Below, in pieces: positions 11,902 to 24,533 of a DNA stretch of 32,004 nucleotides. Positions within the stretch are counted from its first letter, which is position 1, and every line of letters starts with the position of its first letter. Position numbers and translations under genes: made by a program. Location of the stretch: sequence record SRR20825019_448, one strand, 5' to 3'. The notes under the pieces are model-generated. The model was given only the letters and a program-made list of their open reading frames with translations. It made no database searches and had not been told where the DNA came from.

Positions 11902-14451
11902 CTAGTAGCGGAAGCGCAGTGTAAGGCCGTAGGTACGCGGGTCACCGATATAGGCATTAAGGCTACCGCCCGGAATAGTCGAATCAAACGTATCAAGCAC
12001 ATAAGCCTCATTGAGGAGGTTACGCGCCCAAAGCTGGAGCGACCATGCACCGTCAATATCACCTACGCCCATGCTGGCACCAACAAGCGCGTAGCTGTCC
12101 TGGCTTTGGCGGTCATCTTGCGCAACAGACAGGCGAGCCGTGCTGTTGTAGAAGAGCTCACCCCGCACAAACATTTCCAGATCGTCATTGATTGGACGAC
12201 GATAGGTTGCCGTTGCGTTACCAGAGAATTTTGGCGTTTCAGACAGGCGTGAGCCAGACAAGTCCTGTAGCGGACGAAGGATGCCACCACCCTCAGGCTC
12301 AGCAAATGTACAGCCCGATGTGTCATGCGCAGGGCATGGGCCATTCGGGAAGTTCTTGTATTCCGCTTTCCAGAGCCAGGTGAAACCACCAGTCAACAGA
12401 AGCTCAGGTGTTGCCTGGAACTTGCCGTCGAACTCAAGGCCCTGCGCCGCAGCATCAACGTTACCCGGCACAAAGCTTGAGCCCGTGAAGATGTTTTCCT
12501 GGAAACCGTCAATGCTTTGGTCAAACACTGCGAAATCAAGGCTCATTCGGTTATCAAGAAGGCGTGCTTTCAGGCCCGCTTCCCATGAGGTTGCAATTTC
12601 CTTATCAAACTGGAAATCACCTACGCGAGCTGCTGCACTATCAAGCGCAAACCCACCGGCTTTATAACCACGGGAATAGCTCGCATAAACCGCCAGGTCG
12701 TCATTGACCTGATAGTTGGCGATGATGTTGCCGGAGAAGTTATCATCCGAAAAACTATCGTTCACGTTCGCAGCTGGCGGGAAGAACTGAAGCCCCGTCA
12801 GGCCAAGAAGTGGATTAAAGTCCGGGTTGGTCGCCACAGCACTTGCTTGCGCCGTTGCTGTCGGGATTACCGTACTCTGGATAACTTCTGGCGGCACACC
12901 ACCTGCCTGTGCTTGAGCAACCGCCTGCTGCACCGCTTGACCGACAAAAATTTCCACGAAATCAAGCGCCGCAAATGGGTCGTCGATCACGATATCCGAA
13001 TCCATGGATTTCTTGTCGTGCGTATAACGAAGGCCACCTGTCAGGGTTAGTTGATCAGATACATGCCAATCTACCTGCACAAACGCACTGTAGCTTTCGT
13101 TCTTCTGGTTGAAGAGGCCTTGCAGTTGGCCGGAACCGTTAGCGAGGAAATAGCCCGATGGTGCGCCAAGGCCAGCTTCAAGCTGGCTGACCGCGCCACC
13201 TGTCAGGATATCCGCGAACGGACGAAGGCCGGGGCCCTGTACTGTCTGGTTGTCGGCTGACAGGTCTTGATTGTAGTAATAAACGCCCGCCATCCATTCA
13301 AACGGACCGTCTGTATTGGAGGTCAGACGAATTTCCTGCGTGAACGTATCATAATCCTGATCCAGAACACGGCGCTTGTTGAGCTGAAGGTCTGAGAAAT
13401 CGGCATCAATGTCCTGCAGCTCGCGGTAGCCGCGGAACGCAGAGATCGATGTCAGTGTAAAACTTTCAAAATCAATGTCGATCTGGCCGGATACACCGTA
13501 TGATTCCAGATTCCCAACAACCACTTCACCATCAATAGTGGTCTGGCGGTCCTTGATATCTGGGGCCCCATTGATGTCGGAGCCAAGTACTGTAAGCGCT
13601 TGTTGTGAACCAGCAGCCACTAGATAGAACGGCGCCGCACAGCATTCTTCATTGAGGTCGCTATAGTCTGCAATAATGCGAACGCTTGTGCTGTCTGTTG
13701 GCTCAAACAGTATTTGCCCGCGCAGGCCATACCGATCACGCTCGTTCAGCTTGCGGCCATCAGCGTTGTCAATCGTACCATCACGCTTGTTGACGTTAAC
13801 GTCGAGGCGCATGGCAAGCGTGTCTTCCTGTAGCGGAATATTGACAGCAGCCTTACCAACCTTGGCGTCATAGTTGCCATAGGTCAGCTCGCCCTCAACC
13901 TCAAAGTCATAATGCGGCGCTTTGGTCACATAATTGATCACGCCCGCAGACGTGTTTTTACCAAAGAGCGTGGACTGGGGCCCACGCAACACTTCAATGC
14001 GCTCGATGCCCAGGAAGTCGTTGACCGATGCACCGTTTCTGGAGCGATAAACGCCGTCAACAAACACACCAACAGCAGGCTCAAGCCCGAAGTTGAAGGT
14101 GGACGAACCGATACCGCGAACGGAGAAACTTGTGTTGGATGCCGATGCGCGCTGCACAATCTGCAGGCTGGGCACCAATGTTTGCAGCGCCGTGAGGTCA
14201 CGCGCCTGCGCGAGCGACATGGTGCTGCCGCCAATTGCCGACACCGCGACCGGTGTTTCGAGGATGGTTGCTTCCCGCTTCTGGGCAGTCACCAAAATCT
14301 CCTCAAGCGCGAAGGAGACATCACTATCTTGATTATCCTGCGCAACCGCAGCGCCCGTTACCATCATCGCTCCGGCAAGTGTTCCGGTAGCAACTGAAAG
14401 CATAAGTTGAGCGCGACGACGAGACGCACCTTGTCCATACTTGAAATTCAT
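11902..14451 (-). CDS. TonB-dependent receptor 1
   Basis: Signal peptide, TonB box region LEEILVTAQKR, plug motifs VGVFVDGVY and IEVLRGPQSTLFGKN, C-terminal PRTYGLTLRFRY. Confidence 0.95.
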   Translation of the reverse strand: MNFKYGQGASRRRAQLMLSVATGTLAGAMMVTGAAVAQDNQDSDVSFALEEILVTAQKREATILETPVAVSAIGGSTMSLAQARDLTALQTLVPSLQIVQRASASNTSFSVRGIGSSTFNFGLEPAVGVFVDGVYRSRNGASVNDFLGIERIEVLRGPQSTLFGKNTSAGVINYVTKAPHYDFEVEGELTYGNYDAKVGKAAVNIPLQEDTLAMRLDVNVNKRDGTIDNADGRKLNERDRYGLRGQILFEPTDSTSVRIIADYSDLNEECCAAPFYLVAAGSQQALTVLGSDINGAPDIKDRQTTIDGEVVVGNLESYGVSGQIDIDFESFTLTSISAFRGYRELQDIDADFSDLQLNKRRVLDQDYDTFTQEIRLTSNTDGPFEWMAGVYYYNQDLSADNQTVQGPGLRPFADILTGGAVSQLEAGLGAPSGYFLANGSGQLQGLFNQKNESYSAFVQVDWHVSDQLTLTGGLRYTHDKKSMDSDIVIDDPFAALDFVEIFVGQAVQQAVAQAQAGGVPPEVIQSTVIPTATAQASAVATNPDFNPLLGLTGLQFFPPAANVNDSFSDDNFSGNIIANYQVNDDLAVYASYSRGYKAGGFALDSAAARVGDFQFDKEIATSWEAGLKARLLDNRMSLDFAVFDQSIDGFQENIFTGSSFVPGNVDAAAQGLEFDGKFQATPELLLTGGFTWLWKAEYKNFPNGPCPAHDTSGCTFAEPEGGGILRPLQDLSGSRLSETPKFSGNATATYRRPINDDLEMFVRGELFYNSTARLSVAQDDRQSQDSYALVGASMGVGDIDGAWSLQLWARNLLNEAYVLDTFDSTIPGGSLNAYIGDPRTYGLTLRFRY

Positions 14452-14678
14452 ACTTCCCTCCCTTGGACCTTTAACCGGTGCCCTGCTGGCTTCCTTACAC
14501 CGGTTTGGAGCAATACTGCCTCTCGATTTACGTGCACGTCAAGCGGTGCGGCGCTCACTTTTTCGCAATTGAGACACCAGTGTCACCACTGAAACACACC
14601 TTACTTTATGACGTTTTTTTTAAAGCTGGCTCTAAGGTCAAGATTCCGTAACGGAAATTTAAGGGGAGGAAGGAACAC

Positions 14679-14705
14679 AAAAAGAATAAGGCGGCCGAAG
14701 CCGCC
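14679..14705 (-). terminator. Probable intrinsic terminator after TBDR 2
   Basis: GGCGGC-CGAA-GCCGCC with an A-rich tract on the left (U-tract on the minus strand). Confidence 0.65.
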
Positions 14706-14739
14706 CCAAAAAAAATTTAAGTCCCCTTTATACCAAAGT

Positions 14740-17337
14740 CTAAAAATCGAGGCTCAGGGTCAGGCCATAGGTTCGTGGATCGTTGGGGTAGCCGTTGTAA
14801 CTTCCCGATTGCGCCACGGAATCAAAGATAAGCTGGAGATAATTCTCGTTGGTAATGTTCTTGGCCCATGCAGACAGGCGCCAGCGATTATCTTCACCTC
14901 CTTCAATGCCGATGCTGGCATTCAGGATGAATGTGCTGGGCATATCGCCAAACGGGTCAAGGTCACCGGCAACGTTTCGCTCGCCCCTATAATAGGCTTC
15001 ACCCTGAATAAACCCGAGCATGTTGTCCCCAATTGGCTGGGTATATGTTGCCGTGGATGTCATCGTCCATTTAGGCGCATCAGCGAGGCGAGTGCCCGTG
15101 AGGTCGGCCGCTCCCGTATAAGCCGCGTTGGTCGGGTCACACGATGGCTGCGGATTGGTTACCCGGCACGGCCCCCCCACAAATGAGGTATAGGTGGCGT
15201 CACTATAGGCGGCGGCAAATGTCCAGTTCAAATTCTCGGTTAGCGCGAACTGGCTATCAACTTCAATACCCTTGATGCGGATCGAACCAGCGTTCCTGAG
15301 TTCAAAGCCAAGGCCAGTGAAGATGTTGGACTGGAAGTCATCAACCTTTTGACTATAGGCCGCGATATTGACCTGTGCCCGCCTGTCCCAGAAACGGATT
15401 TTTGCACCCAGTTCCCAGGCATCCACAGTCTCGGGTTCAAACTCATAGGTGTTGGTATCGCCTGCGTTACTGGTAGCAGCAGCGCGGGAAGTGTCAAAAC
15501 CGCCAGCCTTATAACCGCGTGAGAAGCTGAAATATGTATTCAGGTCATCGTTCCAGTCATACGCAAGGATAACGTTACCCGTGAGCTTGTCTTCCGAGCG
15601 AGACCGGTCAAAATCGTTGCGCGGCGGGAAGAACTGGAGCGCCGCAAAACCACCAAACGGGTTGGCAAAATTTGGGTCCGAGATTGTCTGATTGAGGAGC
15701 GCCATTGCTGTCGGAAACGGTACGCCGGCCCCAAGAACTTGTGCAAGGAATATAGCGTTATAAACATTGCCAAGGTCAGGTGCCCCGTTGGCGTCAAACA
15801 CGTCTGTGAAATTCAGTGCTGCGAACGGGTCATCGATGTTGAAAACACCGGTCGCATCTTTCTTCTCTTTGGTGTAGCGCAGGCCGCCTGTCAGGGTCAG
15901 TTGATCAGTGATGTGCACATCAACTTGCCCAAAAGCCGCCCAGCTGCTTGAAGCTGTATCAAACTTCTCCTGCACCATGCCGCCTTCTTCGGCGAAATAG
16001 GTGCCCACCGGCACCGGCGCTGGCCACAGGCCACCACCCGCGAGGGCAGACAGGGTCAGTTCAAGTCCGGTGATATTATCAAAGCCCGGCACAAAAGCAT
16101 CGGAGCCCGCCAGTATGCTGAAGAAATCCCGGTTGTCAGCGCCGTAAGGCACCTTGTCTGTCGCGTCCAGGTTTTGCTTGGAATAGAAACCGCCAACGAG
16201 CCAGTCCACCCGGTTGTCGCCCGTGGATGCAAGCCGGATTTCCTGGGTGAAGATATCCACTTTGGTAAGCTCGCCGTTTCGTTTGATCAGGTCGGCTTGA
16301 GTGAAGTCAGCATCGAAGTTGGCGTCGGATTCAAAATCCCTGTAAGCGGAGATGGACGTCAGCTCAGCAGAGCCCAGGTCCCATTTCAACTCACCTGAAA
16401 CACCAAAATCTTTCATGGCGTTAAGCATCACACCGTTGAAAGCAGTTTTGCGCTCATAGGGGTCAGGTGGCACGATCTCAAAACCAAGGGCCGCGACAGC
16501 AGCCATGGTTGGCCCGTGCTCAATGAAGGGTGCCGCACAGCAAGCTTCATTGATTTCCGAATAGTCCCCAATCAGGCGGAAGGAGATAGCATCTGAAGGC
16601 TCCAACAACAGTTGGCCGCGCACGGCCCAACGGTCTCGGTCGTTTACGTCACGGCCGTCGCTTACATTTTCAATAAAGCCGTCGCGCTTGTTCACATTGG
16701 CCGAAAGCCTGAACGCTGCCTTGTCCTCTGCTATCGGCCCCGTCACCGTGCCCTTGAGGATAATCTGGTCATAGTTGCCGTACGAAACCTCGGCCTTGCC
16801 GCCAAATTCATATTCTGGCGACTTGGTCACAAAGGAGATTACGCCCGCAGACGTGTTTTTCCCAAAAAGCGTGGACTGCGGGCCGCGCAGGACCTCGACC
16901 CGTTCAACCGAGAGAAAATCGCCAATGGCGGCCCCTGTACGGGAACGGTAAATGCCGTCCACATAGATGCCCACCGAGGGCTCAAGCCCCGGGTTGAAGC
17001 CTGAGGTGCCAATACCGCGAATGTTAACCACCGTCTGGAAAGACGCAGCGGCTTGCGTGGTGTTCATGGCAGGCACTGCCATCATCAGGTCACGAACGTC
17101 GCGGATGTTGGATTTTTCGAGTGTTTCGCCGGTGTAGGCGCTGACGGCAATCGGTACGTCCTGAAGTGTCTTGGCGCGCTTTTGCGCCGTTACCAGGATT
17201 TCTTCCAGCGTGAAACCGCCGTCACTATCCTGATTGTCCTGTGCAAGCACCTGACCAGAAAAGCCAAGCGCTACCGCACCGATAGCAACCGAATGCAGCA
17301 GATGGGCACGCAGCGCGCGCCGTGTATAAACCTTCAT
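14740..17337 (-). CDS. TonB-dependent receptor 2 (paralog of receptor 1)
   Basis: LEEILVTAQKR, VEVLRGPQSTLFGKN, C-terminal PRTYGLTLSLDF. ATG 17337 follows the SD-like GGGGAGA. Confidence 0.95.
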   Translation of the reverse strand: MKVYTRRALRAHLLHSVAIGAVALGFSGQVLAQDNQDSDGGFTLEEILVTAQKRAKTLQDVPIAVSAYTGETLEKSNIRDVRDLMMAVPAMNTTQAAASFQTVVNIRGIGTSGFNPGLEPSVGIYVDGIYRSRTGAAIGDFLSVERVEVLRGPQSTLFGKNTSAGVISFVTKSPEYEFGGKAEVSYGNYDQIILKGTVTGPIAEDKAAFRLSANVNKRDGFIENVSDGRDVNDRDRWAVRGQLLLEPSDAISFRLIGDYSEINEACCAAPFIEHGPTMAAVAALGFEIVPPDPYERKTAFNGVMLNAMKDFGVSGELKWDLGSAELTSISAYRDFESDANFDADFTQADLIKRNGELTKVDIFTQEIRLASTGDNRVDWLVGGFYSKQNLDATDKVPYGADNRDFFSILAGSDAFVPGFDNITGLELTLSALAGGGLWPAPVPVGTYFAEEGGMVQEKFDTASSSWAAFGQVDVHITDQLTLTGGLRYTKEKKDATGVFNIDDPFAALNFTDVFDANGAPDLGNVYNAIFLAQVLGAGVPFPTAMALLNQTISDPNFANPFGGFAALQFFPPRNDFDRSRSEDKLTGNVILAYDWNDDLNTYFSFSRGYKAGGFDTSRAAATSNAGDTNTYEFEPETVDAWELGAKIRFWDRRAQVNIAAYSQKVDDFQSNIFTGLGFELRNAGSIRIKGIEVDSQFALTENLNWTFAAAYSDATYTSFVGGPCRVTNPQPSCDPTNAAYTGAADLTGTRLADAPKWTMTSTATYTQPIGDNMLGFIQGEAYYRGERNVAGDLDPFGDMPSTFILNASIGIEGGEDNRWRLSAWAKNITNENYLQLIFDSVAQSGSYNGYPNDPRTYGLTLSLDF

Positions 17338-17631
17338 GGTAATCTCCCCAGATTTTCCCCATAGCCCCGCCTTGGCCGGTCCCAAGTCAAATCTCCGCAC
17401 GTTCTGGCAAACATGATGGCAGGAGTAGACCTCAATACCATTTTAAGGCAGTTCATTAAAATGATTTACCTCGAATGACAAAAGGTCAAGAAAAAGCACG
17501 CATAAAACTTAAGTTTCCGATCACCCGCCGTGCGTGTGTTGCACCTATACCATTGATTCAGGGCATGTTTTTAAGAGCGCGATAATTTCAGGTTTTTATT
17601 ACCGCATGCTTGGCTTGTATCACTGCCGCCC

Positions 17632-17660
17632 AAAAAAGAAGGGCAGCGATGCTGCCCTTC
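17632..17660 (-). terminator. Intrinsic terminator after TBDR 3
   Basis: GAAGGGCAGC-GAT-GCTGCCCTTC with a left A-tract. Confidence 0.75.
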
Positions 17661-17695
17661 TCGTGGTTATTTTGCTTTGTATCAAGCGTGTCTGA

Positions 17696-20365
17696 TTAGA
17701 ACTGAGCCACCAGTTTGGCATATACCATACGACCGCGCGGATCGTGAGTACGGCTCTCGTAACCACCGTTAGTGGAAACATATGGTGGTGCTTTATCAAA
17801 CGCGTTGATCACACCGAACTGAAGGCTAGACCCTTCCATGCTTTCGCTAAGGGCGCTCAGCTGCAGGGTATATTGAGCATCAACAGTCGTCATGGAGCCA
17901 ATCGTGCTCCCTGCTGTCTGATCGTCATTCATGCCACTGATGTGCCGCACATAGAAGCGAGCGTCATGGTTTTCATTACCCCAGGCCATACCCGTATTAA
18001 TGCGCCACGACGGTGTTGGGCTGCCGAAGTTTGCAAAGTTACGGTTACCAGCACCATCAATGGACCCCGCTTGCGGGTCTTCAAGATCGTACTTGAGCAC
18101 ATGTGTTGCCTCGAAGAACGGCATGAAGGTACCCATGTCAGTATCGATGTTGTATTTCGCCGATACGTCAAAGCCCTGCGTCGTCACTTTGGAAGCGTTC
18201 AGATAATCCACGATCACCATGATGATGCTGCCTGACGTACCCGCCGAGCGGATCACACGGCTTGTATCTGTCGGGTTCGCATTCACAACGGCTTGGTAGT
18301 TTTCCTGAATGATTACGTCCGTGAAGGTGTAGTTCCAGAAATCAACATCAAGATCGAGACCGCCAACAGGTTCCCACGTGAAACCGAAGTTCCAAGCTTT
18401 GCCTTGCTCCGGCACGATAGTGCGGCCACCTTCAGGTGCCACAGAACGAACCGCAGCGAACGCTGTGCCGCCAAGTGGGTCTGTAACCTGATTAAGCGAC
18501 GTGCCACCACCGGAAACCTGAAGCACACTTGGTGCCCGGAAACTGGTGGAGTAACTACCACGAAGCGCCATGGTTTCTGTTGGGCGATACAGAAGCGAGA
18601 TTTTCGGATCAGTGGTTGCCCCGATATCGCCGCCGTAAATCTCGTGACGCAGTGCGATCGAAAGGTCGAGCTGATCAGTGATCGGAATAAGTGATTCCCC
18701 GAAAATACCAACAGCGCTACGATTGTCGCTGAAATCAGTGTTGCCGATTACGAAAGCAAAACCGTCCGCGTTCGAGATGTCGTCATAGTCACGACCCCAG
18801 AACTCATCCCGGATCTGAATACCTAGCGCGAGACCGATATCGCCTGCACCAGTGGAACCAATCGTACCGGATACCACCGCATCATAAACGGTTGTTTTCG
18901 AAGTACCGTCAATCACTTGTTCGCCGATGATATAGTCCATCACCGCGGCACTATTCGGTGCTGTGGTGAAGCTTGTAGCAAACGGGTTGAAGAACTCACA
19001 ACCCGCCGTACCCGGCGCAACTGAACCAACGCCGGCGTCACAAGCGCCGTAACCGATCAAGGCACGCTGGAAGTTGTCTGTGATCACATCAGCTGTTGCG
19101 ATCTGATAGGTGTTCTTACCGTGGGTAACACCAAAATCATAGCTCCAGTTCTCATTGAAATCACCTGTCAACTCGACGTTGAAACGGTATGTTTCAGACG
19201 CAAACCGGTTCGGGCTTGGATCACCACCGTTACCGATCGCGCGGCCAAGGAAGGTCACGCCCTCACCAAATGGGTTTTCAGGGTGATAAGCTGGTACACC
19301 CGCTGAACCCAGTTGCAGATACGGGAAGGTTGGTGAGTTGTTCCGGACCGCGCCGGTATCAGCCCAGCCACCTTCCAGGCGCAATTGGTGACCGTCCCCG
19401 AGATCTTGCGTCACCACGGCGTAAGCCTGTTTGCGCTCCTCTTCAGGGACAAGGTTATAATAGTCACCGAAGTCAAAGCCACAGGTACCCACATTGATAC
19501 CGCCTCCTAGCGGTACCGCCACATCCGGGATACCGCCCACTTCCTCACAACCGTATGGGTCGATGACCGGCGCTGTTGTGCCGATCAAGCCAATAATAGA
19601 CGGCACATAATAGGAGCCTGGGTTACCAAGAACCGAGCTATCGTCTGACGGCAGGCTGAAGCGACGCTCCGCAGTTGTCAGCGGTGAACGGTCATAATAA
19701 CTGAACGCACCCATAAAGTGGGTCGTATCATTCCCGAAACCGAACTTGGCTTCATAAAGCTGGTCAGATTGGCTGCCCTGGTCGGTAAGCGTCTGGTACT
19801 TGGCGCTGACCTTCACACCTTCGAACTGGTCGTCGGTAATGAAGTTAACAACGCCCGCGACAGCGTCGGTACCATAAATGGCGGCTGCGCCGTCTTTCAC
19901 GATCTCAATCCGCTGCACAGCAATCTGCGGCACAAGCGCGCTTGTATCCACAAACGCAATACCGTCGTTTGTTGTTGTGCCGGCAACCACCTGGCGACGA
20001 CCGTTCAGGAGAACGAGCGTTGATGCCACACCTAGGCCGCGCAGGTTAAAGTTGGACGTGCCTGACGTACCGTTCTGCGTAAACGCATCCGGGTTATTCT
20101 GGGCACCATTGTTGATGGTCAGGGTCTGAACAAGGTCAGCCACATTGCTGGCGCCGATCTGGTTCAGGTTTTCTGAGCCAATCACCGCAATCGGTGATGG
20201 GCTGTTAAACTGTGATTTACCTTTAAGATAAGTACCGGTGACCACGACTTCTTCGATTTCCAGCATGGAATCGGCTTCGTCCTGGGCTATTACCGGATTT
20301 ACTGCAAACAAACTCAAACATCCCGCGGCGAGCGCGGTCGTATTGAACAAGCGGTTCTGGCGCAT
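17696..20365 (-). CDS. TonB-dependent receptor 3 (different subfamily)
   Basis: IEEVVVTGT, NLRGLG..STLVLLNGRR, IEIVKDGAAAIYGTDAVAGVVNFI, terminal Phe. Confidence 0.95.
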   Translation of the reverse strand: MRQNRLFNTTALAAGCLSLFAVNPVIAQDEADSMLEIEEVVVTGTYLKGKSQFNSPSPIAVIGSENLNQIGASNVADLVQTLTINNGAQNNPDAFTQNGTSGTSNFNLRGLGVASTLVLLNGRRQVVAGTTTNDGIAFVDTSALVPQIAVQRIEIVKDGAAAIYGTDAVAGVVNFITDDQFEGVKVSAKYQTLTDQGSQSDQLYEAKFGFGNDTTHFMGAFSYYDRSPLTTAERRFSLPSDDSSVLGNPGSYYVPSIIGLIGTTAPVIDPYGCEEVGGIPDVAVPLGGGINVGTCGFDFGDYYNLVPEEERKQAYAVVTQDLGDGHQLRLEGGWADTGAVRNNSPTFPYLQLGSAGVPAYHPENPFGEGVTFLGRAIGNGGDPSPNRFASETYRFNVELTGDFNENWSYDFGVTHGKNTYQIATADVITDNFQRALIGYGACDAGVGSVAPGTAGCEFFNPFATSFTTAPNSAAVMDYIIGEQVIDGTSKTTVYDAVVSGTIGSTGAGDIGLALGIQIRDEFWGRDYDDISNADGFAFVIGNTDFSDNRSAVGIFGESLIPITDQLDLSIALRHEIYGGDIGATTDPKISLLYRPTETMALRGSYSTSFRAPSVLQVSGGGTSLNQVTDPLGGTAFAAVRSVAPEGGRTIVPEQGKAWNFGFTWEPVGGLDLDVDFWNYTFTDVIIQENYQAVVNANPTDTSRVIRSAGTSGSIIMVIVDYLNASKVTTQGFDVSAKYNIDTDMGTFMPFFEATHVLKYDLEDPQAGSIDGAGNRNFANFGSPTPSWRINTGMAWGNENHDARFYVRHISGMNDDQTAGSTIGSMTTVDAQYTLQLSALSESMEGSSLQFGVINAFDKAPPYVSTNGGYESRTHDPRGRMVYAKLVAQF

Positions 20366-20515: not shown

Positions 20516-20929
20516 TCAGTTGGGATGGATAAGTGCCTGTTTTACAAACACCTCAGCCATGCCAACGCCAAGGCGCGCATCGATATAAGGTGTCAGGTAA
20601 GCTTTCACGATATCAGGGTCTATTGGCCTGTTCACCTGAAAGGTTTGGCGCGACAACATAGACAGTGCTGTATTGAAGTCTGACCGGACTTGGGGCAGCC
20701 GTGATCGCACGACCTCAAAGTCCTGAGTGTTCTCCATCACCAGTACAATCTGCAATGTAGCCTGACCCTCAACAATGCCGCGTTTGATGACGGAGAAATT
20801 GAACGGTGACATCTCAAGCTTCGGTTTGCCGACAAACTCCTTGTCTCCTTCTTCCTCTTCAGAGAAAGCAAAAGCCGCAGGACCGAAAAGGCTAAAACCC
20901 ATCAAAAAAGCGATTAGAAAAATTCGCAT
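20516..20929 (-). CDS. FliL-like exported/membrane protein
   Basis: Hydrophobic N-terminus, acidic linker, then EMSPFNFSV, RLPQVRSDF and EVFVKQ, resembling the FliL C-terminal domain; 137 aa. Confidence 0.55.
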   Translation of the reverse strand: MRIFLIAFLMGFSLFGPAAFAFSEEEEGDKEFVGKPKLEMSPFNFSVIKRGIVEGQATLQIVLVMENTQDFEVVRSRLPQVRSDFNTALSMLSRQTFQVNRPIDPDIVKAYLTPYIDARLGVGMAEVFVKQALIHPN

Positions 20930-21143: not shown

Positions 21144-21202
21144 TGTCGCATTATAAGACATGTGTTGTATTATGCGATGATTTTGTGTCCTTTTTTGCAA
21201 CA
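21144..21202. promoter_or_regulatory. Three 17-bp imperfect palindromes (candidate enhancer-binding-protein sites)
   Basis: TGTCGCATTATAAGACA (21144-21160), TGTTGTATTATGCGATG (21163-21179), TGTCCTTTTTTGCAACA (21186-21202); loose consensus TGTYGCA-N3-TGCRACA. Confidence 0.45.
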
Positions 21203-21242
21203 AATTCAACCATTTAATTGAACACTTATACAATAAAAGTCA

Positions 21243-21255
21243 CAACATATTGATT
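21243..21255 (-). promoter_or_regulatory. IHF binding site
   Basis: Minus strand AATCAATATGTTG matches WATCAANNNNTTR exactly, in an AT-rich context. Confidence 0.65.
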
Positions 21256-21283
21256 TATAATGATATTTAAGAACTTATTAAAA

Positions 21284-21300
21284 CTGGCACGAGCCTTGTA
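21284..21300 (+). promoter_or_regulatory. Sigma54 (-24/-12) promoter candidate
   Basis: CTGGCACGAGCCTTGTA versus consensus YTGGCACG-N4-TTGCW; one deviation (C>T at -12). Confidence 0.6.
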
Positions 21301-21310
21301 TATATAGGGA

Positions 21311-21437
21311 TACCTCTCGAGCAGGGGTGCGGGAATGGGTAAATTTATTTACTCGACCCCCAATCGTGCACCTGTTCCCGCGTACCCCGCGCTCGAGAAG
21401 TTTCTCCTAAAAGCCGCGCCGCAAGCGCGGTTTTTTT
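21311..21437 (+). ncRNA. Candidate structured small RNA (~125 nt)
   Basis: Long stem (21315-21340 pairs with 21370-21398), UUUCUCCU linker, terminator hairpin plus U7, immediately downstream of the predicted sigma54 start site. Confidence 0.6.
21409..21437. terminator. Intrinsic terminator (strongest on +, may also serve the convergent FlaEY-like gene)
   Basis: AAAAGCCGCGC-CGCAA-GCGCGGTTTTTTT. Confidence 0.85.
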
Positions 21438-21512: not shown

Positions 21513-24500
21513 TTATGCAAAAAGGCTGAAGCTTGATGAGGATGCGCCCGACTGAAGGCGCGCAAGCCCGGTCTGAAGGTTCGCGAGTTGCGCCTGTTGA
21601 TAGGGAGACGCAGATCCCTGGTTAGCGGAACCGTTCTTCAGTTGCTCAATCAGCGGATTATAGTCCAGCGACCGGTAGGCGCGCTGCACGGTTGAAACTG
21701 CCCCGTCCAGAAGTCCCAGCACATATTTGGCCGTTTGTTTGTCCCCGATATGAATAGCCCCGTCGAGGCCAAGAGCAAACACGCCACCTGTATCCTCTTC
21801 AGGTGGGATATCCTTATCTTTGTCGGTGGTGATATCAAACACTTCGTTCTTGGGCAAAATCCGGCCCGGCTCAATACCAATGCGACTCAACAGGTCCCGG
21901 CCTTCCTTACCAGCAAAAAGCTCGATGGCAACACCATCGTCCAGGGCGCTGATCTTCATTTTTGAGCCCTCATCTGTATTGGAGACCTCTACCTTCAACT
22001 TCGAAAAGCCTGCTATGCGAATTTTCCGCGCCAGATCATCAAACGTATCGCCCTCGTCGAGCTCAATACGTTTTTTGCTACCACCATCAATGGAGAGATA
22101 GAAAAAGTCATCCACTTTGGCTGACGTTTGGGTCTGTATATCAAGAGTCTCATCAATCTGGACCGTGCCCTGCGGCAGACCAAGCGTTTCCAGAACGGAA
22201 TTACCCTTGTTCGTGAAAGCAATACTGCCAGCCGTAGACCCCGCGAGCCCCTCGCCATATTGCTCAATATCTTCAACAACGCCCGAGGTACCATTAAGGC
22301 GCGCTACAAAAGCATCCGTCGAGCCCTGCCCGGTCTCACCCGCAAACGTTCCGCTTGTTGAGCCTGCAACATAAACAACGCCGTCGGCAACCGTCACATC
22401 AGCAACCCGGTCGGTGCTGCTGGTGGAAAGATACGTAGTGAAATCACCACTCAGGTCCGTCGCGCCTGAAAGTGTCAGGCCGCTTACAAAACCTTCAAAT
22501 GCCCCTTCAGCGCTGCCGTTTTTGGTAGCTGTTCCGCCAGCATCAAGGCTGGCGTTGGTGGTAACCCCAGCGATATAGACCTTGCCATTCGTGTTATCGA
22601 TCGTGATGCCCTGGATAGAACCACCCGCCCCAAGGCTGCCAAAATCAACACTGTCGGTCTGGTTGGTGAGATCGCTGCCGTCAATGCGGCGCACTACGGC
22701 ATTGCCGTCTTCTTCCACCGCCACAACCAGGTTGTCGTTATCGTCAACAGCGATACCCTTGATCACCTCGTTGTCGCTGGTGCCAAATACGTTGGAATCC
22801 ACGAGCGCTCCGGTAGAGCCGGACAGCTTCACGATCAAGGCGTCCTGCCCACCGGAAAACCCCGAGGAGGCACTGACGCCCGACTTGGTGTAACCGCCCA
22901 CAAAAATGTCGCCACTCGAATCAACTGCCACGCTGTTCGCACCAGTTTCACCAAAAGTATCAAGCTGGTAGCGGAAAACCTCATCACCACGCTTGCTGAT
23001 CTTTTGTACAAAAAGGTCGGTGCTATCTACCACATCGGAGGACGAAAGCTTGCTGTCAGTCTGGCCAACAAGAATTACATTGTCGTCCTCGTCAACAGTT
23101 ATGCCCTGCACGCTCGCAGTACCTGAAACACCCAGAAGGCGGGAAAAAACAACGTTTCCTTCGCTGTCGAATTTAGTGAGGAAAACATCTTCACCTTCAG
23201 CAGTATTTAGCTGGTGGCCAAAACTACCTGCTGATGTCCCCACCACATAAATGCTGCCTTCACTATCGGTCGCGATACGCTTGGCCGTGGTATCCGCATT
23301 AACCTTATTGGCGCTATCGATATTGGTGAGCGAAGAGGTGTTGTCCGTGCCGTCAGCGTCGTCATCATCTTCCGTCGCGTCTTCGCCGAGCACCTTGGTT
23401 TTTGCGTCAGCCAGAAACTTGTCCCGCATCTCCTGAAGCTTGGGGTCAAGCTCGTCGTCTTCTTCCTCTTTCACCAAGCCTTTGATTTCCGTGGCCGCAT
23501 AATCAATGCCCGCAAAAGACGTGGTGTCATCAGCCGCTATCGTGCCACTCAGGTTATTGAATTCCGTGATCCGGCTCGTAACCGCATAGGAGTCATCAAG
23601 CTGCTTCACCGAAGACGCCACATAGAGCGTCGGCGCGGAGCTCGCAGCCGAGAAAGAGACCTCCTCTGTGATTGTGCCGTCAACCTGCAGGCCATACCGA
23701 CCGCTGGAACCGTCTCGCCGGATATCAAACCGGGTCTGGTGTTTGATATATTCTTCACCCTCGTCATCAAGAGCCGTAAGGGCTTCAATCTTGCTGTTGA
23801 CCAGATCCTTGATGCTGTTAAGTGAAAGCGTGCCCGAGATTTCGCTCAGGTCAACTTCGATATTATCCGTCTCACCGCTTTTAGTGATGGAGACCGTGAA
23901 AACTTCCGTGCCTGTCAACCCTGCAAGCGCGTCATTGGGATTTGATGCAACCAGCGAACCGTCAAACCCGGTTTCGTTCTTGCCAAGCCGCGCGCTGGTT
24001 TCTGTTTTATACTGCTTTTCGCCCAGAAAAAGCTCAAGCTTCTCAAGCTGCGCGGTCGAGAGATACTCCCGCACCTCAGAGAGGCCTTTCTGGAACTGCT
24101 CGTTCAGCCGTTTGAGCGACGCAGACGACGTTGTATCGGCGGAGGCATACTCAGCCAGAATACGCAAGTTGGACAGGGCTTTGAAAACAGCAAAAGAAGC
24201 TTGTTTGTCCGGGTTGTCCGCAACTGCCTTCAAGTCACTCGATTTCAGGTCAATGAAACTTGATAGCTCACGAACTTCACGAATCTGCTGGTTAAGCGTT
24301 TTGGTTTCTTCGGCCTGTTGCCACGGCGGCACAATCCCGTCATTGGTACTACCAAAGTTATAGGCAGCGCGATCTTCTGCAGAAAGGCTGGCCAGCGTAC
24401 GTTGGGCGATCTTGGAGTTGGCAGCAGCCTGAATAAGCGATGCATCCACCCCGATGATCTGGGTGGTGAAATTGGTTTGGCCGCCAAGGCCAAATAATCC

Positions 24501-24533
24501 ACCGCTTGAATTTGCTATGCCAAAAAATGCCAT
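21513..24533 (-). CDS. FlaEY-like flagellum-associated protein with beta-propeller (SBBP-like) repeats
   Basis: Repeats such as IATDSEGSIYVVG..DVFLTKFDSEGN and VAVDSSGDIFVGG..DALIVKL. N-terminal PPW motif and C-terminal QLANLQTGLARL recall Caulobacter FlaEY (from memory, unverified). No Sec signal. Confidence 0.55.
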   Translation of the reverse strand: MAFFGIANSSGGLFGLGGQTNFTTQIIGVDASLIQAAANSKIAQRTLASLSAEDRAAYNFGSTNDGIVPPWQQAEETKTLNQQIREVRELSSFIDLKSSDLKAVADNPDKQASFAVFKALSNLRILAEYASADTTSSASLKRLNEQFQKGLSEVREYLSTAQLEKLELFLGEKQYKTETSARLGKNETGFDGSLVASNPNDALAGLTGTEVFTVSITKSGETDNIEVDLSEISGTLSLNSIKDLVNSKIEALTALDDEGEEYIKHQTRFDIRRDGSSGRYGLQVDGTITEEVSFSAASSAPTLYVASSVKQLDDSYAVTSRITEFNNLSGTIAADDTTSFAGIDYAATEIKGLVKEEEDDELDPKLQEMRDKFLADAKTKVLGEDATEDDDDADGTDNTSSLTNIDSANKVNADTTAKRIATDSEGSIYVVGTSAGSFGHQLNTAEGEDVFLTKFDSEGNVVFSRLLGVSGTASVQGITVDEDDNVILVGQTDSKLSSSDVVDSTDLFVQKISKRGDEVFRYQLDTFGETGANSVAVDSSGDIFVGGYTKSGVSASSGFSGGQDALIVKLSGSTGALVDSNVFGTSDNEVIKGIAVDDNDNLVVAVEEDGNAVVRRIDGSDLTNQTDSVDFGSLGAGGSIQGITIDNTNGKVYIAGVTTNASLDAGGTATKNGSAEGAFEGFVSGLTLSGATDLSGDFTTYLSTSSTDRVADVTVADGVVYVAGSTSGTFAGETGQGSTDAFVARLNGTSGVVEDIEQYGEGLAGSTAGSIAFTNKGNSVLETLGLPQGTVQIDETLDIQTQTSAKVDDFFYLSIDGGSKKRIELDEGDTFDDLARKIRIAGFSKLKVEVSNTDEGSKMKISALDDGVAIELFAGKEGRDLLSRIGIEPGRILPKNEVFDITTDKDKDIPPEEDTGGVFALGLDGAIHIGDKQTAKYVLGLLDGAVSTVQRAYRSLDYNPLIEQLKNGSANQGSASPYQQAQLANLQTGLARLQSGASSSSFSLFA

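Follow-up and report, generated by a model that had tools for sequence, protein, structure and literature searches.

The segment at positions 21144 to 21437 of the window, the 32,004 bp stretch of DNA that was analysed, almost certainly includes a genuine, conserved small RNA (sRNA) gene. The RNA is judged to represent an undescribed family that works like the Qrr RNAs but is not a member of the Qrr family. The reading preferred here, with a probability of roughly 0.6, is that it is a trans-acting, base-pairing sRNA that forms the output of a relay running from a LuxU-like Hpt protein through a LuxO-like sigma54 activator (bEBP) to sigma54. The LuxU-like Hpt would relay to the LuxO-like bEBP, and the phosphorylated LuxO-like protein would bind three TTGCA-W3-TGCAA-type boxes approximately 95-135 bp upstream of the -24 element. 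With IHF bending the DNA, sigma54 polymerase would produce an RNA of ~125 nt, in which a covarying stem would display a C-rich loop with the core CGACCCCC. Pairing of this loop with GGGGGUC-type ribosome-binding regions would block translation, and the hpt (luxU-like) mRNA may be one target in some lineages, giving negative feedback on the activator of the RNA. The computed part of this mechanism comprises conservation, structure, the box consensus and co-occurrence with a LuxO-like gene; transcription of the RNA is predicted from the DNA. The literature searched, which excluded most subscription journals and supplements, gave no account of the RNA or its seed, nor of LuxO in Kordiimonas, and genome-wide sRNA prediction tables could list the RNA.

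Organisation and conservation of the RNA locus

The host of the window is a Kordiimonas, the name carried by relatives of a neighbouring gene, and in the nearest genome (G001) the element region is 100% identical by BLAST. Three unstranded 17 bp enhancer repeats, all imperfect palindromes, are located at 21144-21160, 21163-21179 and 21186-21202, with 4, 2 and 4 mismatches to the LuxO box, respectively. An exact match to the IHF consensus (21243-21255, minus strand) is followed by a plus strand sigma54 -24/-12 promoter motif (21285-21299). The predicted sRNA occupies 21311-21437 on the plus strand, with the +1 placed from promoter spacing. It includes an 11 bp helix identified by covariation (21330-21340 with 21370-21380) that closes a loop, the invariant C-rich portion of which (21351-21366) is the putative seed, assigned by conservation. 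A UUUCUCCU linker (21401-21408) and an intrinsic terminator hairpin (21409-21437) complete the plus strand transcript. All of the parts named in the original prediction, namely the three repeats, IHF site, sigma54 promoter, stem with a 29 nt loop and terminator, sit where it had placed them. A divergent fliL-like gene (20516-20929, minus strand) belongs to an Atlas cluster named putative FliL and has no Pfam or NCBIfam match. Just past it, three tandem TonB-dependent receptor genes are found on the minus strand at 11902-20365. On the other side of the RNA is a convergent gene for a 1006 aa SBBP beta-propeller protein (21513-24533, minus strand); its putative flaEY-like label comes from the original prediction.

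The RNA has a predicted fold of -61.2 kcal/mol (z -6.8), and none of 200 shuffles was equally stable. Reads from one sequencing run that may be of RNA covered 21565-21700 alone, and two other runs contributed none, which speaks neither for nor against expression. Taken singly, the sigma54 and IHF motifs are within chance, being matched in 21 and 30 of 100 shuffles of 32 kb, respectively, and they are considered proven because they are conserved across relatives, not by the motif match alone. No long start-to-stop open reading frame is present at 21311-21437 on either strand, which agrees with the absence of a protein gene claimed originally, and a small-protein reading of the element was rejected for want of a notable start-to-stop frame. 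The Rfam search that had been proposed returned no match at the gathering score for the window and 10 homolog loci; 11 weak matches were terminator or hairpin noise, and Qrr was not among them.

The element was found in 43 of 45 Kordiimonadaceae genomes, the three weakest cases being confirmed by reading, though the genomes compared are related and such counts are not independent. Kordiimonas gwangyangensis DSM 19435 is one of its carriers. An alignment of 31 rows shows that the three repeats, an IHF-like site, the promoter, the stem and the loop are kept while the spacers diverge. A sigma54 motif lies at a near-fixed distance in 64 of 82 unique seed copies, as judged from sequence only. The -12 element of the window, TTGT rather than TTGC, was read correctly in the original prediction; it is not an oddity, however, as TTGT is the family norm (51 of the 64 sigma54-type copies, against 7 with TTGC and 6 with TTGA). 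An IHF-like site with at most 1 mismatch is present in 46 of the 64, where 11.8 are expected, and 54 of 63 homologs have a terminator-like hairpin of variable sequence. Matches at three further loci were dropped, one being a phage match without the stem (L076), one lying inside a coding frame (L074) and one matching the model without seed or synteny (L333).

Sixteen nucleotides of the loop are invariant in all 48 rows of an alignment filtered for redundancy, and a mini-stem of 3-4 bp closes its C-run. Two-sided changes occur at 9 of the 11 pairs of the helix in these rows, and 95.5% of cells are paired, compared with 31-51% for slid partners, a percentage that is not a probability as the structure was derived from the same, related rows. 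Of the long stem described originally, the 11 bp helix is kept and covaries, but the outer 8 bp helix does not keep its register across relatives. The UUUCUCCU linker, which had been taken for an anti-Shine-Dalgarno seed, is found in only 2 of 63 homologs and is probably not the seed; it is the large loop that is invariant. Conservation of promoter and stem and helix covariation support the predicted sigma54/IHF/enhancer-controlled, terminated, non-coding RNA, which has no Rfam family.

Beyond the family, a covariance model and promoter patterns identified homologs with a box, a sigma54 promoter and a CGACCCCC-type loop in 17 of 21 LuxO-bearing genomes from four sister families. The loops of these homologs differ but retain CGACCCCC or a near variant. 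The RNA was found in one of 7 genomes without a LuxO-like gene, and in none of 6 LuxO-bearing genomes of family f131. In G521, a member of this sphingomonad-side family, the same boxes appear to drive polysaccharide genes and not an RNA. The genomes searched outside the order did not yield the RNA. A 17-mer search matched 2 of 401 genomes of the class outside the order, and the promoter-plus-core pattern matched in 13 of 54 LuxO-bearing genomes there, 4 of which were read in context, none being this RNA family. In three genomes of one sister genus (L341, L343 and L347), another sigma54 promoter, also with LuxO-type boxes, lies downstream of metH and is followed by a conserved, structured non-coding stretch that is unrelated to the seed and, in L341, has no Rfam match. 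Homologs adjoining proS (L493-L495) have an additional hairpin ahead of the terminator; its long, C/U-rich loop is a further anti-Shine-Dalgarno-like element.

The loop, candidate targets and probable mode of action

The RNA probably acts by base-pairing, and the shared core predicts target sites of the form GGGGGUC(G). The hpt gene was picked for examination after one match pointed to it. Of 30 hpt loci, 10 have GGGGGTC overlapping the start (at one locus the gene is a kinase domain and the site is not a start), and the motif is also at the hpt start in 3 sister-family genomes, compared with none of 456 background ORFs. Cognate duplexes range from -21.6 to -24.9 kcal/mol, and are matched by 1-11 of 515 background leaders. 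Twelve of the 30 hpt leaders fall below the 5th percentile and 18 pair no better than background. The positives come mostly from one clade, perhaps three lineages, and some of the sites are Met-Gly-Gly codons. Complementarity in luxO leaders is not conserved. A precedent for feedback through hpt is the repression of luxOU mRNA by Vibrio Qrr RNAs (PMC2632942, partial text). Base-pairing with an hpt start, and with it negative feedback on the activator in some lineages, may therefore be proposed at a little under even odds.

Searches for wider targets were made at several levels. The complement of the 16-mer, allowing wobble and up to 2 mismatches, showed no excess over the control in 5 complete genomes (24 loci read). 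GRTTGGGGG before an ATG gave 68 matches, about 50 of which were read, with no gene common across genomes, and TGGGGGTC before a start gave 119, only hpt being shared among the 50 that were inspected. When 150 of 163 matches from 20 genomes were inspected by eye, no family-wide target gene was seen. A HapR-like gene was rejected as a target as its 30 leaders have no conserved complement, and GGGGGTC is absent from luxI/luxR leaders.

With no target common to the family in either the 20-genome or the 5-genome searches, a second reading stays alive, namely that the same promoter logic produces a protein decoy, the loop of which titrates an RNA-binding protein as in GlmY, CrcZ and CsrB. Invariance of the 16 loop nucleotides while stems are freely replaced, and the mini-stem closing the C-run, would both suit a protein-binding element. 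So would the predicted tandem repetition of hairpin and loop within one transcript in L023, L205 and L227. On the other hand, the loop is anti-Shine-Dalgarno-like, the length of its C-run ranges from 5 to 7 in one sister family, hpt leaders are complementary in separate lineages and no candidate protein was identified. The decoy reading is considered unlikely, well below base-pairing.

Further copies of the seed bear on the same question. Apart from one chance match and one tandem repeat, the 18 copies without a sigma54 motif keep the loop on unrelated stems. A TTGAC-type -35 element was present in all 9 metagenome copies examined. One seed copy shares a contig with genes for capsid, portal and terminase proteins; the bin is 76% complete, so the host is not certain. 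A second is in an IMG/VR contig that also has integrase and repressor genes, and a third is on a plasmid-like contig with ParA/Rep. Searches of two phage/plasmid collections gave one chance 28 nt match in one and none in the other. The phage and plasmid copies may be mimics of the host RNA, an interpretation that also fits a decoy. Sigma70-type seed copies were recorded at L210, L212, L222, L224, L232, L235 and L236; several of this type lie, by eye, between STAS-like and chemoreceptor-like genes, and those in L235 and L236 are followed by 12 bp tandem repeats.

The probable LuxO-like activator and its proposed relay

The consensus of the repeats is TG-TTGCA-W3-TGCAA-CA, with centres near -135, -115 and -95 from the promoter. 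The LuxO upstream activating sequence is the 13-mer TTGCAWWWTGCAA, TTGCA-W3-TGCAA (PMC10162802, partial text). In 44 of 64 copies the best box differs from TTGCAWWWTGCAA at no more than 1 position, compared with 0.06% of shuffles, and 41 of the 64 have two sites within 2 mismatches.

G001 encodes 7 sigma54 activators, of which FlbD, NtrC, PspF and NtrX pass their models and two have no assignment. LuxO is the best model for the seventh (595.4 bits, versus 389 for NtrC and 328 for GlrR), though the score is below the NF041946 curated cut-off of 800 bits, which was passed by none of 151 and none of 301 alphaproteobacterial genomes. This protein, the single LuxO-family member in G001, covers positions 2-462 of the 463-position model with a REC-AAA-HTH architecture, and its best PDB match is LuxO 5EP0. 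The GAFTGA loop is present in all of the LuxO-like rows displayed. The autoinhibitory linker glycine of LuxO (PMC4878744, partial text) is replaced by Arg in G001 and by Arg or Lys in most Kordiimonadaceae, with Gly only in G010; it is common among other alphaproteobacterial LuxO-like proteins. LuxO-like proteins were detected in 55 of 301 alphaproteobacterial genomes.

A LuxO-like gene is present in 43 of 45 family genomes, and the two without it, G044 (96% complete) and G045 (100%), are the same two that lack the RNA. Two single cases are informative. G010 has a different recognition helix in the HTH and TATCA-type repeats, and in G451, where the LuxO-like gene is absent, the RNA is in place without sigma54 motif or boxes. 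In G041 the luxO-like gene is split yet the boxes are kept; the gene is divided over two frames at L300:1735-3167, through an assembly error or a recent loss. Since the boxes match the LuxO upstream activating sequence, the RNA co-occurs with the gene and the boxes change or vanish with it, the activator is most likely LuxO-like. The original prediction of enhancer control holds, and the enhancer-binding protein that it left unidentified can now be given this name with fair odds. Control of the RNA by the LuxO-like protein is thus very probable as far as genome comparison can indicate, and the protein would be expected to bind the boxes directly.

An alternative is that another bEBP, such as FlbD, NtrC or a TacA-like protein, activates the sRNA as part of a flagellar or nitrogen programme. 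The fliL-like/flaEY-like neighbourhood is kept in 59 of 64 copies (the fliL-like gene adjoins 56 and the SBBP gene 59), and 13 of 17 sister-family copies adjoin a fliL-like gene. FlbD and NtrC are both encoded in G001, and TTGCA-type half sites are short. The neighbourhood is also what stands of the motility link suggested originally; that link has position as its sole basis: the target searches yielded no flagellar gene, and the boxes agree with LuxO and are not tied to FlbD. The boxes are altered or lost where the LuxO-like gene is altered or lost, and also occur upstream of several luxO-like genes, which parallels LuxO autorepression (PMC2632942, partial text). Activation by a different bEBP is improbable. 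The luxO-like gene at L110:9863-11811 lies near the rpoN cluster, with a PilZ gene and DUF1491 running divergently from it, and boxes precede it in several genomes.

The partner proposed for the LuxO-like activator is a standalone Hpt with LuxU 1Y6D as the best PDB match (E 2e-7) and LuxU as the best model, at 43.2 bits, below the NF041948 cut-off of 140. Its gene adjoins an FKBP gene. The same FKBP gene precedes, in two sister-family genomes, a gene for an Hpt or a hybrid kinase that is immediately next to the luxO-like one; four further sister-family genomes have an Hpt one gene away from the RNA locus. The hpt gene is kept in G044, without a luxO-like gene or RNA. As to the presumed input signal, LuxI-type synthases were found in all 5 genomes tested and LuxS in none of the 5; a quorum-type input is doubtful. 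LuxI/LuxR-type clusters are located at L521:4177-6904, L522:4897-6547 and L524:4136-5754, and two are in G001. A HapR/OpaR-like TetR gene divergent from alkB is found in 34 of 45 genomes; a conserved palindromic operator separates the pair (L248:1102-1701, L265-L294), and the product is probably an alkane-pathway regulator.

The least probable alternative, that the RNA is a sponge pairing with another sRNA in the manner of CrfA or QrrX, would suit a long invariant loop on a stable hairpin, and CrfA of Caulobacter works so via a stem-loop (PMC12559287, partial text), but a conserved complement to the 16-mer (at most 2 mismatches) is absent from 5 complete genomes, where matches are at control level, and CrfA has the reverse polarity, with a G/A-rich loop that binds C-rich sRNAs.

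Comparison with known systems

The closest parallel to the preferred LuxU-LuxO-type reading is the LuxU-LuxO-sigma54-Qrr pathway of the Vibrionaceae. Both have LuxO-type boxes, a sigma54 promoter, LuxO-like and LuxU-like proteins, a terminated RNA of ~100-125 nt, extra copies and a possible feedback site on a relay mRNA. Unlike Qrr, the new RNA has no Rfam match and is a single long hairpin with the seed in its loop. It also lies ~166 kb from the luxO-like gene in G001 (at 2,409 and 2,242 kb, respectively), whereas one Qrr copy is divergent from luxO in 20 of 21 taxa (PMC10162802, partial text). Conserved pairing to a HapR-like gene, the linker Gly and LuxS are further differences, being absent here, and LuxI-type synthases are present.

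SypG is a LuxO paralog that drives polysaccharide genes and qrr1 in Vibrio fischeri (PMC10162802, partial text). The systems share a LuxO-family bEBP and overlapping boxes, and G521 has boxes at polysaccharide genes, but in G001 there is only one LuxO-family protein and the locus is a non-coding RNA.

The alpha-r8/suhB family (SisA-D and MmgR) shares a C-rich anti-Shine-Dalgarno-like seed, a terminator, sibling copies and an alphaproteobacterial host with the new RNA. The kinship with this family suggested originally is not borne out. The family core is UUUCCUCCCU (PMC12559287, partial text), which the new RNA lacks; its seed is in the loop of a long stem, it has a sigma54 promoter with LuxO boxes, and it matches no Rfam family.

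GlmY and CrcZ are sigma54 decoy RNAs. Control of a non-coding RNA by a bEBP and sigma54 is common to them and the new RNA, but the latter has no Rfam match, and for its activator the GlrR model is far weaker than LuxO.

The LuxO-Qrr circuit has been studied as a Vibrionaceae system. A 2004 survey of 138 genomes reports LuxU orthologs only in Vibrio (PMC524169). If the reading proposed here is true, a protein relay and DNA box would be common to Vibrio and marine Alphaproteobacteria, with the RNA output invented separately, and both the circuit's origin and what LuxO-like proteins do across the Alphaproteobacteria would become directly testable. A more speculative extension, which we consider rather unlikely as a whole, is that an entire order-level group of marine Alphaproteobacteria has a Vibrio-style LuxU-LuxO-sigma54 relay, an independently evolved sRNA with luxU feedback, and constitutively promoted seed mimics on temperate phages and a plasmid that hold the host LuxO-on. 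The seed copies on prophages would be candidates for mimicry of a host signalling sRNA by a phage.
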